Assembly (NCBI GenBank): GCA_021498095.1
Contig: JAIZWK010000001.1
Span: 1,110,001-1,142,000 of the forward strand
DNA: 32,000 nt
From: Candidatus Harpocratesius repetitus
Lineage (GTDB): Archaea > Asgardarchaeota > Lokiarchaeia > Sigyniarchaeales > Promethearchaeaceae
Direction of reading: 5' to 3'
Below, one piece after another: positions 5,683 to 10,156 of the stretch. The notes below the pieces were generated by a model. It had not been told where the DNA came from. It ran no database searches and saw only the letters and a list, made by a program, of their open reading frames with translations. Position 1 is the first letter of the stretch; each line of letters starts with the position of its first letter. A program made the translations under genes and the position numbers.

Positions 5683-6987
5683 TCAAGATTTAGGTGAATT
5701 ATAATTTTCGTCTTTTGAAGTGCTTTTCTCACCGTTTTCCTCCAGATTCTCTTCATGATCACTGTCTTGATTCGATTTTTTCTTTTTTGATTCTTGATGC
5801 TGATTGTATTTTTGAAATAGTTTCTCTTTTATTCCGAGAATTATTGCCAGTTGTCTTTCTTTATCGCGCTGCTCTCGACTTTTTTCCAATTCTTGCTTTT
5901 CAATTTTTGATAATTTTTCTCTCTGTTTTTGAATTTTTTTCTCAAGTGCTCTCTTTGCTGCTTCTAAAGCCATTAATGATTGCTTCTGTTTTATTTCTGC
6001 TTTATATTCTTGTCTTTCTGCTTTCCATTCTGCGCGTTCCAATCGTTTTAAGGCTTTCTCTCTCTTAATTTTCGCTTTTTCTCGTAGTTTCTGTGCTCTT
6101 CGATCTTTAAATTCTGTCTTTTTAAGTTGATATATTGTTATTGGTGTTTTTCTTCCTTTCAATTCGCTATGCTCTGCAATTACATCCTCAACTTCTTGAA
6201 TTGGTTTCTTTTTTGCACGCTCTTCTGCAGTTAAACTGTCTTTTTCTCTAAATTCATTTGGACGATATTTTATTGCAGGCGTTCCCATATAAACCCATCC
6301 TGATTCTAACTCTTGGCTGAATGATGTACTTGATAATGCACCCAAAATTGTATTATCGCCTATAATTGTTCCTGGGCTTATTACTGAATGTGCTCCAATT
6401 AAGCAATCTTTTCCTATTTTAACTTTTTTAATAATCAAGAGCTCAGTGGTAATCATTGAAGTCATTATTACAGATCCTTGACCTATTATGGTTCCATGTC
6501 CAATTTCAAGAAATTCAGCATCAATCCAAGCATCATAAGTTGGTGTTGATAATGCTACTCTATCCCCAAACATTTTTAATGCAATAGAATCTGCCCATGG
6601 AACGGGAAAATTATGACAAACCCAAATTGGAAACTTTTTAATAACCGCTCTAAGGCTCCAAAATCGATAATCCTTGTTCTTCATTGTTCTTTCAAAAAAA
6701 CCTTCACGAGGGCGATGAAATAAGAATACGATTTTTAGAAATACCCAAGCCCACAAAATTGATGAAAATACTAAAAGAAAATATCCGAAAAACAAATATA
6801 ATGGTAAAATTACCAAGAAAAAATAAAGAGATATTTCAAAAAGGGATAATAATTTAAATAAGATAAAGATTTCGGGAAATATTGATATCCAAATAAGCAA
6901 AATATAAATGATAATATCTCGATTAACTACAAGTGTATTTGTTGTTGTAGGTCCTGCTTTCAAGCTAGTCGGAATTGAACTGGACAT
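5683..6987 (-). CDS. Membrane protein with left-handed beta-helix (hexapeptide, acyltransferase-like) domain and long charged coiled-coil tail
   Basis: Two hydrophobic segments, then IGHGTIIGQGSVI / KIGKDCLIGAHSVISPGTIIGDNTILGALS and YMGTPA; K/E/R-rich C-terminus. Confidence 0.8.
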   Translation of the reverse strand: MSSSIPTSLKAGPTTTNTLVVNRDIIIYILLIWISIFPEIFILFKLLSLFEISLYFFLVILPLYLFFGYFLLVFSSILWAWVFLKIVFLFHRPREGFFERTMKNKDYRFWSLRAVIKKFPIWVCHNFPVPWADSIALKMFGDRVALSTPTYDAWIDAEFLEIGHGTIIGQGSVIMTSMITTELLIIKKVKIGKDCLIGAHSVISPGTIIGDNTILGALSSTSFSQELESGWVYMGTPAIKYRPNEFREKDSLTAEERAKKKPIQEVEDVIAEHSELKGRKTPITIYQLKKTEFKDRRAQKLREKAKIKREKALKRLERAEWKAERQEYKAEIKQKQSLMALEAAKRALEKKIQKQREKLSKIEKQELEKSREQRDKERQLAIILGIKEKLFQKYNQHQESKKKKSNQDSDHEENLEENGEKSTSKDENYNSPKS

Positions 6988-6988
6988 G

Positions 6989-7957
6989 TTATGATTCTCC
7001 TTCAGAAGTATAATTCAATGACATCATTTTATTTTTATACTGTTTCTTCGATTCTTTATTTCTTAATACTAATGGTTTTAACTTTTCTGGAATTTGAAAC
7101 ATTTTTATATATCTCTTCAGAGATATTTTGCCTACTGGCAATCCAAAGTATTTACTAAAACCTCTAACTTTTCTAAATTTGACTACTCCAGACATTGGTA
7201 GGAATTCTGTATATGGTTCTAATTCTGTTCCTGGAGGAATCGCATTAAATGCCCCAATAACGGCGTGTTCATCTATTTTTACTTTTTTTAATGTAATTGC
7301 CCCATATTTTCCTTCAACTAAATGACTACTTACGATTGCACCTTGAGCAATATATGCGTAATCTCCCATTTCTAAAAATTCTTGGGTATAAAATTGATCT
7401 TCAATCACACATTTCTTTCCAATTCTATTTGTTCCTACAAAATTAAAAGCCCAAGGCATAAGCCATGGATAAGCAGATTTCGAGATTTCCCATTTTAGAA
7501 TTCTTAAAATCAGTCCACGAAAATGATAATAGTTGATTGCTCTTGCTTCTTCTTTGCCAATACCTTTAGCTGCCACTAATTCTTTTTGAGGTGAGCGCCA
7601 ATTACAAAATTTTAGTAACCAACGACTAAAAAGAATTACAAAAAGTAAACGAAGGAAAAAAAAAATCATTATTATTAGAGGTGTGATAAGCCAAATTATG
7701 AGAAGCAAGAGATCTTCAAAAATTAATGATAAATTGAGCAGTACATGAAGATTTGGAAAAATTATCTTTTTAAAATAAAAAAATAATCCTATTGAAGGAA
7801 TGACCCATGAATACGCCCAAATAAAAATAATTGTGGGAAAATATCTTTCATACTGAATACGAGCTCTTGGAATCTGCAATGAATTATGCTCTTCAAATTC
7901 AATCTTTGCCTCTATTTGATTTGTAGAATAAGAATCAATTTTTTTTTTTTCACTCAT
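6989..7957 (-). CDS. Membrane protein with left-handed beta-helix domain, paralog of the downstream gene
   Basis: TM segments then IGKKCVIED, MGDYAYIAQGAIV, VKIDEHAVIGAFNAIPPGT, YFGLPV; only 1 nt separates it from the next ORF. Confidence 0.8.
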   Translation of the reverse strand: MSEKKKIDSYSTNQIEAKIEFEEHNSLQIPRARIQYERYFPTIIFIWAYSWVIPSIGLFFYFKKIIFPNLHVLLNLSLIFEDLLLLIIWLITPLIIMIFFFLRLLFVILFSRWLLKFCNWRSPQKELVAAKGIGKEEARAINYYHFRGLILRILKWEISKSAYPWLMPWAFNFVGTNRIGKKCVIEDQFYTQEFLEMGDYAYIAQGAIVSSHLVEGKYGAITLKKVKIDEHAVIGAFNAIPPGTELEPYTEFLPMSGVVKFRKVRGFSKYFGLPVGKISLKRYIKMFQIPEKLKPLVLRNKESKKQYKNKMMSLNYTSEGES

Positions 7958-8107: not shown

Positions 8108-8512
8108 TTAATCATCTGTACGTCTTTTATTAAAAAGTGATTTCAATTCATCCATAATACTGCCTCTCAAGCTCATTGGGTTGGCAGGTGCTGGGCTTGG
8201 TGCAGGTGGTTTTGAACCTGGAGGTGGTGGTGTGCTGGGTTTCCCGCCTGGAGGTGGTGGTGGAACACCTGGAGCACCTCCTCCTTGCGCAACCCTCTTT
8301 TCTAAAGCACCAATTTTTGATTCAATCCCGCTTATTTTCTTAGAAAGTCCATTTATCTGATTTGTGATGATTTGAATTTGTGTATCCGTCATTTCAGGGA
8401 TTTTTAAAACGATCTGCATGATTTTTTCAACAACATCTGCTAATCCTTCAACACGTTCTTTTAATGGTGCTTCAGAATATGCATTCATCATTTTAAAGAA
8501 TTCTTCAGCCAT
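8108..8512 (-). CDS. Coiled-coil + polyproline protein with C-terminal WH2/FAB-like amphipathic helix
   Basis: Heptads ITNQINGLSKKISGIESKIGALEKRV; GVPPPPPGGKPSTPPPPGSKPPAPSPAP; terminal RGSIMDELKSLFNKRRTDD. Confidence 0.8.
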   Translation of the reverse strand: MAEEFFKMMNAYSEAPLKERVEGLADVVEKIMQIVLKIPEMTDTQIQIITNQINGLSKKISGIESKIGALEKRVAQGGGAPGVPPPPPGGKPSTPPPPGSKPPAPSPAPANPMSLRGSIMDELKSLFNKRRTDD

Positions 8513-8662: not shown

Positions 8663-9283
8663 TTAGAATTCAAGAAAACCTGGATCTCCTAATATTTCTT
8701 CTATGTTTGCACGTCTTTTGGGTTTTTCTGATGGTTTATCTTGCTCTTCACCAAAAGGATTCACTTCTTCTTCATCATAGATGTTTTCTTCCAATTCTGC
8801 ATCAACAATTAAACCGGCTTTTAATTGCTCTAATAATCGTTTTTCATTTTCTTTATATTGCTTTGCTGCTTCTTTCCATTTTTCAGCATTTTCTAAATCT
8901 GCAGGATCCTTATACTTCTCGAATTCTTCCAAAGCTTTCTCTGCATTGATCTGTGCGTTATCAGACAAAAATGAATATACTAATGCTAATTCCGAATATT
9001 GACCTTTTTCCTTTAAGATCTCTTCACGTCTTGTCAAACGGTCATATTCTTGATCTTTATAATAAATATCGATGAAATTTCCAAATGCATCAACAGGTTC
9101 ACTAATTTCATTTTTTGGAACTTCTTGTTGTTCACCGCAGTGACCACATATTACCAGTGCTTTATCATCACTAAACTTCATATTAGTTTTCATAGTTTTA
9201 TGACCACACTTCGGGCAGGTAAATATTTTTGGCAAAGTTCTAACTGGTCTATAAACTACTTTTTTACGCTTTCTTCTTCCCAT
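8663..9283 (-). CDS. elf1: Transcription elongation factor Elf1 homolog with long helical/acidic C-terminal extension
   Basis: MGRRKRKK start, LPKIFTCPKCG, CGHCG, EPVDAFGNFID (Elf1 Zn-ribbon pattern); about 130 extra residues. Confidence 0.85.
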   Translation of the reverse strand: MGRRKRKKVVYRPVRTLPKIFTCPKCGHKTMKTNMKFSDDKALVICGHCGEQQEVPKNEISEPVDAFGNFIDIYYKDQEYDRLTRREEILKEKGQYSELALVYSFLSDNAQINAEKALEEFEKYKDPADLENAEKWKEAAKQYKENEKRLLEQLKAGLIVDAELEENIYDEEEVNPFGEEQDKPSEKPKRRANIEEILGDPGFLEF

Positions 9284-9388: not shown

Positions 9389-10156
9389 CTATGTTTGAGT
9401 TGAATCAGATGATTTTTCGATGTCTTTTATTATTTCTTTAGTACATTCCGGACAATAACTGTGTGAAACTTGAACATCATTATATTTTGCTAAATATTCT
9501 TCTAATTGTTCCCAATAACCTTCATCTGTCCGAATTTTTTTGCATTTTGCACAAATTGGTAATATTTTTCGTAATTCTTTAATCTCATTTTGAGCTTCTT
9601 CATATTTTTCGAGTAAACTTTTGCGTTTTGGTGGTAGTAAATAACGGATAAATGGAATTTGCTTTGAAGTGAGCTCTTCCAATTTAGAATGAAAAAAGAA
9701 CAAGTAAATAAATATAAACAACCCAAATCCGGTTCCAAAAATGACTTTTGCTAAAATGCTAAATTTTAAAGAATAATTAGAATCTGGGACGAGAATATTT
9801 ATTCCACAGGGATAGAGAATTCCATCAAGAATCAAAACAGCCACATATTCTCCTATTATTATAAGTGATACTGCAATACGATTCTTAACCTTTGATAAAA
9901 ATTGTCTTATAATTATTAGTTGAAGCAAAATTTCACCAGAAATAAGCACAAATGAATATAACACCGATTTATATGAAAATTCAATTAAGATTTTTGAATA
10001 ATCAAGAAATATCACATTTGATGATGAAGTAAAAATTAATGATAAAAATAGAAATATTGCGGAAAAGAATAAATTGAGAATAAAAATATAATATATCAAA
10101 TTTCGGACAATTTCAGGATCCGGATGGGTAATTATTAGAAAAAGAGCAGTGAACAT
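9389..10156 (-). CDS. Multi-pass membrane protein with C-terminal LPICxxCKKIR...W...SHxxCPxC metal-binding module
   Basis: About 5-6 hydrophobic segments, a short coiled coil, then LPICAKCKKIRTDEGYWEQLEEYL...SHSYCPEC. Confidence 0.8.
   Translation of the reverse strand: MFTALFLIITHPDPEIVRNLIYYIFILNLFFSAIFLFLSLIFTSSSNVIFLDYSKILIEFSYKSVLYSFVLISGEILLQLIIIRQFLSKVKNRIAVSLIIIGEYVAVLILDGILYPCGINILVPDSNYSLKFSILAKVIFGTGFGLFIFIYLFFFHSKLEELTSKQIPFIRYLLPPKRKSLLEKYEEAQNEIKELRKILPICAKCKKIRTDEGYWEQLEEYLAKYNDVQVSHSYCPECTKEIIKDIEKSSDSTQT

Follow-up and report, generated by a model that had tools for sequence, protein, structure and literature searches.

In Asgard archaea, protrusions and crawling are driven by a dynamic cytoskeleton of Lokiactin. 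The actin regulators named for these organisms in the papers cited here are profilins and gelsolins only, WH2-like motifs are treated in the Asgard literature searched only within gelsolins, and the machinery for actin nucleation and elongation is stated to be still unknown (PMC9433394, PMC13716822). Eukaryotic Ena/VASP proteins carry an EVH1 domain, G/A-PPPPP-G profilin-type tracts, a GAB/WH2 motif of the LKKV type, an F-actin-binding motif (FAB), in which a basic triplet follows a short amphipathic helix, and a C-terminal oligomerising coiled coil, VASP_tetra. The WASP, WAVE and WASH proteins are arranged as an N-terminal helical assembly domain, a proline-rich region, a basic amphipathic helix and an acidic end.

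In this study, we analyzed a 32,000-nt stretch of the genome of Candidatus Harpocratesius repetitus (the window), in which positions 8108-8512 encode a 134-residue protein. Like Ena/VASP, this protein combines an oligomerising coiled coil with profilin-type proline tracts and a short amphipathic helix that precedes a basic triplet, and its tail helix aligns without gaps to human VASP FAB 261-276. Unlike Ena/VASP, it has neither EVH1 nor GAB/WH2, and its coiled coil is N-terminal and heptad-based, with no Pfam match, whereas that of Ena/VASP is the C-terminal VASP_tetra. The order of its parts is that of WASP, WAVE and WASH; however, of the WASP VCA region a C-like helix is present, V is absent, and the acidic end consists only of TDD, without Trp. 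Among Asgard proteins, some Arf/RagA-like GTPases have the whole module as their tail, from the N-domain to E-L-K-x-L-F-A-K-R, whereas at 8108-8512 the module stands alone. Some Asgard gelsolin proteins (2DGel and relatives) likewise contain the family N-domain and coiled coil, but the 8108-8512 protein has no gelsolin domain.

A three-part protein encoded at 8108-8512

A sequence-only reading of the window had described a minimal Ena/VASP- or WASP-like actin regulator at this position, citing Ile/Leu heptads, PPPPP and PPPP tracts and the C-terminal GSIMDELKSLFNKRR. All of these features are present in the minus-strand translation (Table 1), with GSIMDELKSLFNKRR corresponding to residues G117-R131, followed by TDD. 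The heptads place I46, I53, I60, I67 and V74 at position a and I49, L56, I63 and L70 at position d. AlphaFold2, run with a 35-sequence alignment, predicted helices at residues 2-13, 17-75 and 115-133 and disorder at 76-114, with pLDDT > 90 for residues 21-70. The coiled coil is a probable dimer or trimer, and a K-R-R cluster follows the tail helix.

Table 1 Features of the 8108-8512 gene and its neighbors in the window
Feature	Position (nt)	Strand	Remarks
Whole ORF	8108..8512	-	ATG start; 134 aa; stop codon 8108-8110; stand-alone member of an unnamed Asgard-wide family
N-terminal helical domain, residues 1-45	8378..8512	-	conserved; MAEEF ... APLKE ... EKIM.I.LKIPEM.D; E29 and P39 invariant
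Coiled coil, residues 46-75	8288..8377	-	4.5 heptads; a = I, I, I, I, V; d = I, L, I, L; pLDDT > 90
Gly/Pro-rich arm, residues 76-113	8174..8287	-	predicted disordered; Ena/VASP-type tracts GVPPPPPGG and TPPPPGS
PPPPP tract	8249-8263	-	residues 84-88
PPPP tract	8219-8230	-	residues 95-98
Candidate docking helix and basic cluster, residues 114-131	8120..8173	-	SLRGSIMDELKSLFNKRR; ungapped alignment to VASP FAB
Acidic end TDD, residues 132-134	8111..8119	-	short; up to ten Asp/Glu in some relatives
Membrane protein, hexapeptide (left-handed beta-helix) repeats	5683-6987	-	long Lys/Glu-rich C-terminal extension
Membrane protein, hexapeptide repeats	6989-7957	-	abutting paralogue of 5683-6987
Elf1-like zinc-ribbon protein	8663-9283	-	130-residue acidic helical extension; Pfam E 9e-17
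Membrane protein, VUPS (vitamin uptake-like sensor) domain	9389-10156	-	Cys-rich zinc-ribbon-like C-terminal end

No Pfam family matched the 134-residue protein; the ORF is short, and its proline-coding core is GC-rich within an AT-rich genome, as might be expected if the gene were spurious or the motif likeness had arisen on a low-complexity chance ORF. However, hundreds of orthologues keep the three-part layout together with the conserved ends, the helices are confidently predicted, and the overlapping plus-strand ORFs reach only 55-59 aa. Because the family is conserved, we consider a chance origin refuted and its probability negligible. Thus, 8108-8512 encodes a genuine, hitherto undescribed cytoplasmic protein of 134 residues that belongs to an unnamed Asgard family. 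In the full-text literature on Asgard actin regulators and related domains, we found no description of this family.

Conservation and distribution of the family

A word-indexed search identified 34 close homologues of 120-181 aa (E 3e-39 to 1e-7), none of which contains a Pfam domain; those that could be named all came from Promethearchaeota MAGs. In the resulting 35-sequence alignment, E29, P39, P112, L115, I119, E122, L123, K124, L126 and K129 were invariant, and the PPP and PPPPPG columns were near-invariant. A profile search of 1.84 billion representatives yielded 369 matches at E ≤ 1e-3, mostly proteins of 100-180 aa with the same layout. The 8108-8512 protein itself matched the family profile with E 1.9e-54, its N-domain and coiled coil, linker and tail all aligning.

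Conservation of the tail helix across Asgard homologues had been named beforehand as a check, and it proved strong: the core E-L-K-x-L is invariant between Asgard classes, and in the distant classes an Arg six residues before the core and a Phe are near-invariant. The family tail consensus reads R-x-x-h-x-x-E-L-K-x-L-F-x-K-R-K. The linker, by comparison, is merely Pro/Ala/Ser-rich in the distant classes, and only 58 of 103 family members contain a PPPP tract. The acidic end is poly-Asp in some relatives and includes a Trp in one orthologue, which is from family f16 and ends in K-K-G-W-A-E-E-D-Q.

We analyzed the distribution of the family at several scales. A Loki-only profile matched 284 of 400 Asgard genomes, and a broad 64-sequence profile matched 248 of the 268 genomes that were at least 85% complete, 83 of 90 high-quality genomes and 65 of 67 genera. 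A prokaryote-wide scan combining a pattern with tblastn, with one genome per species for 185,579 species, confirmed 133 relatives. The sequence-only reading would have been contradicted if homologues were common in lineages that lack actin and profilin; the best 80 of the 133 relatives were all Asgard or "uncultured archaeon" records. A search of the ESM Atlas yielded unnamed Asgard clusters only. Nearly all Asgard archaea have the family, and it is confined to them. The host genome, a single 4.36 Mb contig from the same taxonomic family as L. ossiferum and MK-D1, also encodes a weaker paralogue (G000:C1:300272-300658, minus strand; profile E 1.1e-5), which is shorter and has the tail I-L-D-E-L-N-A-L-F-E-L-R-R. 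The L. ossiferum orthologue is encoded on the plus strand of CP104013.1, at 2,628,799-2,629,236.

Comparison of the tail with VASP FAB and WH2 motifs

The VASP FAB motif given in the sequence-only reading agrees with human VASP FAB as printed, residues 259-278 (PMC10340426). The proposed ungapped alignment, which runs from G261/G117 to R275/R131, also holds, as it is the sole register with a positive score against the family matrix. To score the likeness, we used a 19-column weighted matrix built from 93 distinct family tails and a background of ~1.9 million windows from the six-frame ORFs of the host. VASP FAB reached +10.0 bits over 18 positions and +13.1 bits over the 14-residue core, scores equalled by 197 and 66 background windows, respectively. 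This corresponds to a background frequency of 3e-5 to 1e-4 per window, or ~1-4% for a VASP-sized protein of 380 aa. The FAB likeness may therefore serve as a fair lead, only modestly better than chance, and it cannot show homology, because a eukaryotic proteome is expected to hold hundreds of equally good windows. Within the host genome, the 8108-8512 protein was the sole match to a FAB-class pattern of conservative residue classes in 2.2 million six-frame residues, and the tail HMM gave no second strong match.

Membership in the Ena/VASP, WASP or WH2 families, which had also been proposed, was not borne out. Pfam WH2, WH1/EVH1 and VASP_tetra matched neither the protein nor any of its 34 homologues, and the isolated tails of five homologues returned nothing, WH2 included, at E values up to 10. 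Because Pfam finds no WH2, EVH1 or VASP domain, we do not regard the protein as an Ena/VASP or WH2 member. The suggestion of an Ena/VASP-like build fared better in part: the coiled coil, the PPPPP tracts and the basic end helix are conserved, but the coiled coil lies at the N-terminus and LKK[TV] is absent from the 134 residues, the tail reading F-N-K-R-R instead.

A PDB profile search with the tail retrieved only a designed coiled coil and an unrelated match. The whole profile retrieved coiled coils only, mostly trimeric, and is thus uninformative on function; BRICK1 was among its weak matches (E 0.039). Readings of the tail as a MIM1 motif (binding the Vps4 MIT domain), a PIP box or a ribosomal P-stalk tail were ruled out on inspected motif spacing and charges.

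Long forms in Heimdallarchaeaceae

In Heimdallarchaeaceae, the family members are longer, at 270-320 aa (P0187, encoded at L173:844-1800 on the minus strand, and P0188-P0202). Their N-domain is homologous to that of the 8108-8512 protein (hhalign probability 95.5%, E 1.3e-8) and is followed by an Ala/Pro-rich region with A-P-N-L-S repeats. Two or three WH2-like motifs come next, each a helix plus L-x-K-V/A, with LKKV in some members and the consensuses D-L-M-K-A-A-A-N-L-Q-K-A-P and D-I-Q-D-V-R-S-G-L-T-K-V-D-P. Beyond them lies a helix of the family type, A-L-N-x-E-V-K-D-A-L-Q-K-R-K, then an acidic, Phe-containing stretch and another family motif, whose tail is acidic. The layout looks like V-C-A: to the order of parts shared with WASP, WAVE and WASH, these orthologues add two WH2-like L-x-K-V/A motifs and Phe-containing acidic stretches. 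Pfam WH2 did not match the Heimdall repeats at E values up to 10, and the score of VASP GAB against the WH2-like motifs was weak, being reached by 6e-4 to 3e-3 of the background.

CCDC53 (WASHC3) is a coiled-coil subunit of the WASH actin-nucleation complex. The Pfam CCDC53 family (PF10152) was the top match for the N-domain of several Heimdall members, with 26.9 bits for P0188 against a gathering cut-off of 24.6 bits and 21 bits for P0187. At E < 0.05, seven of the 14 Heimdall members matched, all over the first ~50 profile positions. Pfam gave no CCDC53 match for the 8108-8512 protein. As likenesses to WASH and WAVE subunits, the CCDC53 and BRICK1 matches are marginal, borne by the coiled coil and absent for the protein studied here, and the apparent resemblance of the Heimdall N-domain to CCDC53 is a lead only.

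Fusions to small GTPases and gelsolin domains

The Arf/RagA-like GTPases P0092, P0094, P0105, P0136, P0170 and P0174 end in the complete module with its tail. These proteins are 394-464 aa long and match Pfam Arf and Gtr1_RagA with E 1e-19 to 1e-24, while their fused modules match the family profile with E 1e-7 to 1e-11; one of them is annotated "ADP-ribosylation factor-like protein". A word-index search for longer fused forms added one more GTPase fusion, giving at least seven GTPase clusters in all, and returned no profilin fusion. Full-length GTPase fusions occur in a same-genus genome, in G132 and in MK-D1; with the query used, none was found in the host genome or in L. ossiferum. An ARF GTPase (UYP48373.1), with or without the family tail, was enriched in the Lokiactin co-immunoprecipitate of L. 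ossiferum (PMC13716822).

Other members are fused to gelsolin domains. In P0107, the N-domain and coiled coil of the family (profile E 7e-11) lie ahead of a gelsolin domain with a match to the solved Lokiarchaeota 2DGel (E 9e-11). In P0166, a gelsolin domain, which matches a Thor gelsolin-like domain (E 4.5e-4), precedes the N-domain. P0185, of 560 aa, strings together a Ras-like GTPase, a gelsolin domain, the N-domain, a second gelsolin domain and a zinc ribbon. In the gelsolin fusions, a bona fide actin-binding domain occupies the place after the coiled coil that is held in the 8108-8512 protein by the proline arm and tail. At locus L089, a multidomain gene of the GTPase-gelsolin-N-domain type follows two further small-GTPase genes. 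The domain fusions are the best clue to function. The commonest partner is a small GTPase, and this fits an actin regulator under GTPase control and a non-actin tether equally.

Genomic context

The neighbors of the gene in the window are listed in Table 1; TPR, ABC and AAA proteins are encoded further out. Of 80 related loci, 47 have an Elf1-like gene close to the family gene.

In 66-69 of the 80 related loci, a 207-aa protein is encoded immediately upstream on the same strand, with orthologues at loci L007-L035 and L097-L169. It has no Pfam family, and its AlphaFold2 model consists of three long helices (pLDDT 92.6). The top Foldseek matches of this model in the PDB and AlphaFold DB were almost all BAR domains, with E values of only 0.015-0.1: arfaptin (TM 0.59-0.64), Syp1, IRSp53, MIM, SNX1/5, Pil1/Lsp1, ICA1 and PICK1. 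The host copy of this BAR-like protein, of 206 aa, is encoded elsewhere, at G000:C1:859021-859638 on the plus strand (L170:4022-4639:+). The adjacency is lost in the host's own taxonomic family, and none was seen in the other classes that we checked. We considered the BAR-like neighbor as a functional partner and downgraded it; the adjacency is given little weight because it is limited to one family of the same order, in which the whole region is syntenic.

Co-occurrence with actin and profilin

Lokiactin is 72-92% identical across the phylum and was present at ≥68% identity in 28 of 28 high-quality genomes sampled. The near-invariance of the tail is consistent with a strongly conserved protein partner, and the conservation of Lokiactin is likewise high. 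In families f23-f25, the best actin match is only 52-54% identical and there are no true matches to the polyproline family, in a sample that is small and includes many incomplete genomes. The host genome contains three actin-family genes, namely its actin (L001:1495-2640, minus strand) and two actin-related paralogues; the 32,000-nt window itself encodes neither actin nor profilin nor gelsolin.

For Pfam Profilin, the host genome gave a single match, below threshold (E 0.012), at L005:1456-2100:+ (G000:C1:768128-768772), where the product is 214 aa long and has an 80-residue C-terminal extension; the Pfam model may miss other, more divergent profilins in the genome. According to published work, VASP polyproline is not bound by Loki-type profilins, and those of Heimdall and Thor bind it only at ~0.3 mM (PMC9433394, PMC8410842). 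For this reason, the profilin step is the weakest link in an actin-based reading of the protein.

Possible functions of the family

We tentatively propose that the 8108-8512 protein may be an oligomeric adaptor of the Lokiactin system whose tail docks on actin or an actin-related protein (Arp), a reading that we favour but hold at somewhat less than even confidence. The N-terminal helix would run into the coiled coil and form a dimer or trimer. The tail helix would then dock on actin or an Arp, possibly in the hydrophobic cleft, which is used by the amphipathic helices of VASP FAB, of the C region of WASP and of WH2 motifs. The proline arm would provide reach and might hold profilin-actin, and the coiled coil would multiply the docking sites, allowing filaments to be tethered, bundled or elongated. 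Relatives have this module joined directly to Arf/RagA-like GTPases and to gelsolin domains. Binding of actin or an Arp by the tail, binding of profilin by the arm and an effect on polymerisation are what we infer from these features. Evidence for the actin system comes from the gelsolin fusions, the L-x-K-V motifs of the Heimdall forms, the proline tracts and the restriction of the family to Asgard archaea.

Much of the same evidence can be read in another way, in which the protein is a free-standing version of the Arf/RagA-like GTPase tail and acts as a coiled-coil tether with a conserved non-actin partner in membrane trafficking or remodelling. The partner might be a GTPase effector, a roadblock/longin-type regulator or a BAR-like coat protein, and the likeness to actin-binding motifs would reflect convergent amphipathic-helix chemistry. 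We consider this the main rival, though rather unlikely. It would explain why the whole module ends at least seven clusters of Arf/RagA-like GTPases, including those of close relatives of the host, and why the family gene lies directly downstream of the BAR-like three-helix protein in one large family of the same order; it also agrees with the lack of sequence-level WH2 or VASP membership and with the statistical weakness of the FAB likeness. However, fusion to gelsolin domains points to actin in particular, the Heimdall forms contain L-x-K-V motifs, and the BAR-like adjacency is confined to that one family with its syntenic region. A tether of this kind would partly overlap with an actin adaptor, because small GTPases and BAR proteins are actin regulators in eukaryotes.

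The tail could instead bind lipid. MinD and FtsA have C-terminal membrane-targeting helices behind flexible linkers, and the tail, placed at the C-terminus behind a flexible linker as many membrane-targeting sequences are, might be such an amphipathic helix (as in MinD, FtsA and N-BAR H0), anchoring the coiled-coil scaffold or the fused GTPase through its hydrophobic face and K-R-R. Five hydrophobic residues lie on one face of the helix, the 19-residue motif has a mean net charge of +3.1 (103 members), and the fused GTPases, which have no lipid-modification motifs, would presumably need some anchor. Several features nevertheless make this reading very doubtful. Membrane helices conserve character rather than residues, whereas E122, L123, K124 and L126 are invariant across classes, and E122 places an acidic residue inside the helix. 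Moreover, 50 of 103 members are net-acidic after the basic cluster, some with 8-10 Asp/Glu, which should repel anionic lipid, and the hydrophobic moment is moderate (0.32 here; family mean 0.48). A protein partner is favoured over lipid by the invariance of specific residues, one of them acidic, and by how often the tails are acidic.

A more far-reaching form of the actin-adaptor proposal is that the family is the forerunner in archaea, or the nearest analogue still extant, of the actin-assembly factors of eukaryotes. The tail of this oligomeric, GTPase-linked module would engage Lokiactin or an Arp in its barbed-end cleft, and the Heimdall forms, given their WH2-like motifs, C-like helix, acidic stretch and CCDC53-like N-domain, would already show a V-C-A layout of the WASP/WASH type. 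We regard this as unlikely, but if it were true, regulated filament nucleation or elongation would be older than eukaryotes. If the tail binds another partner, the family would still be an undescribed phylum-wide adaptor of Asgard GTPases.

Overall, the family is built from the parts of an actin-assembly factor, and fusions link it to gelsolin domains and small GTPases. Its layout and these fusions make it a good but unproven candidate for the actin-assembly adaptor still missing from the prokaryotes most closely related to eukaryotes. The protein is small and easily expressed, and it bears on whether regulated actin assembly and its coupling to GTPases predate eukaryotes.
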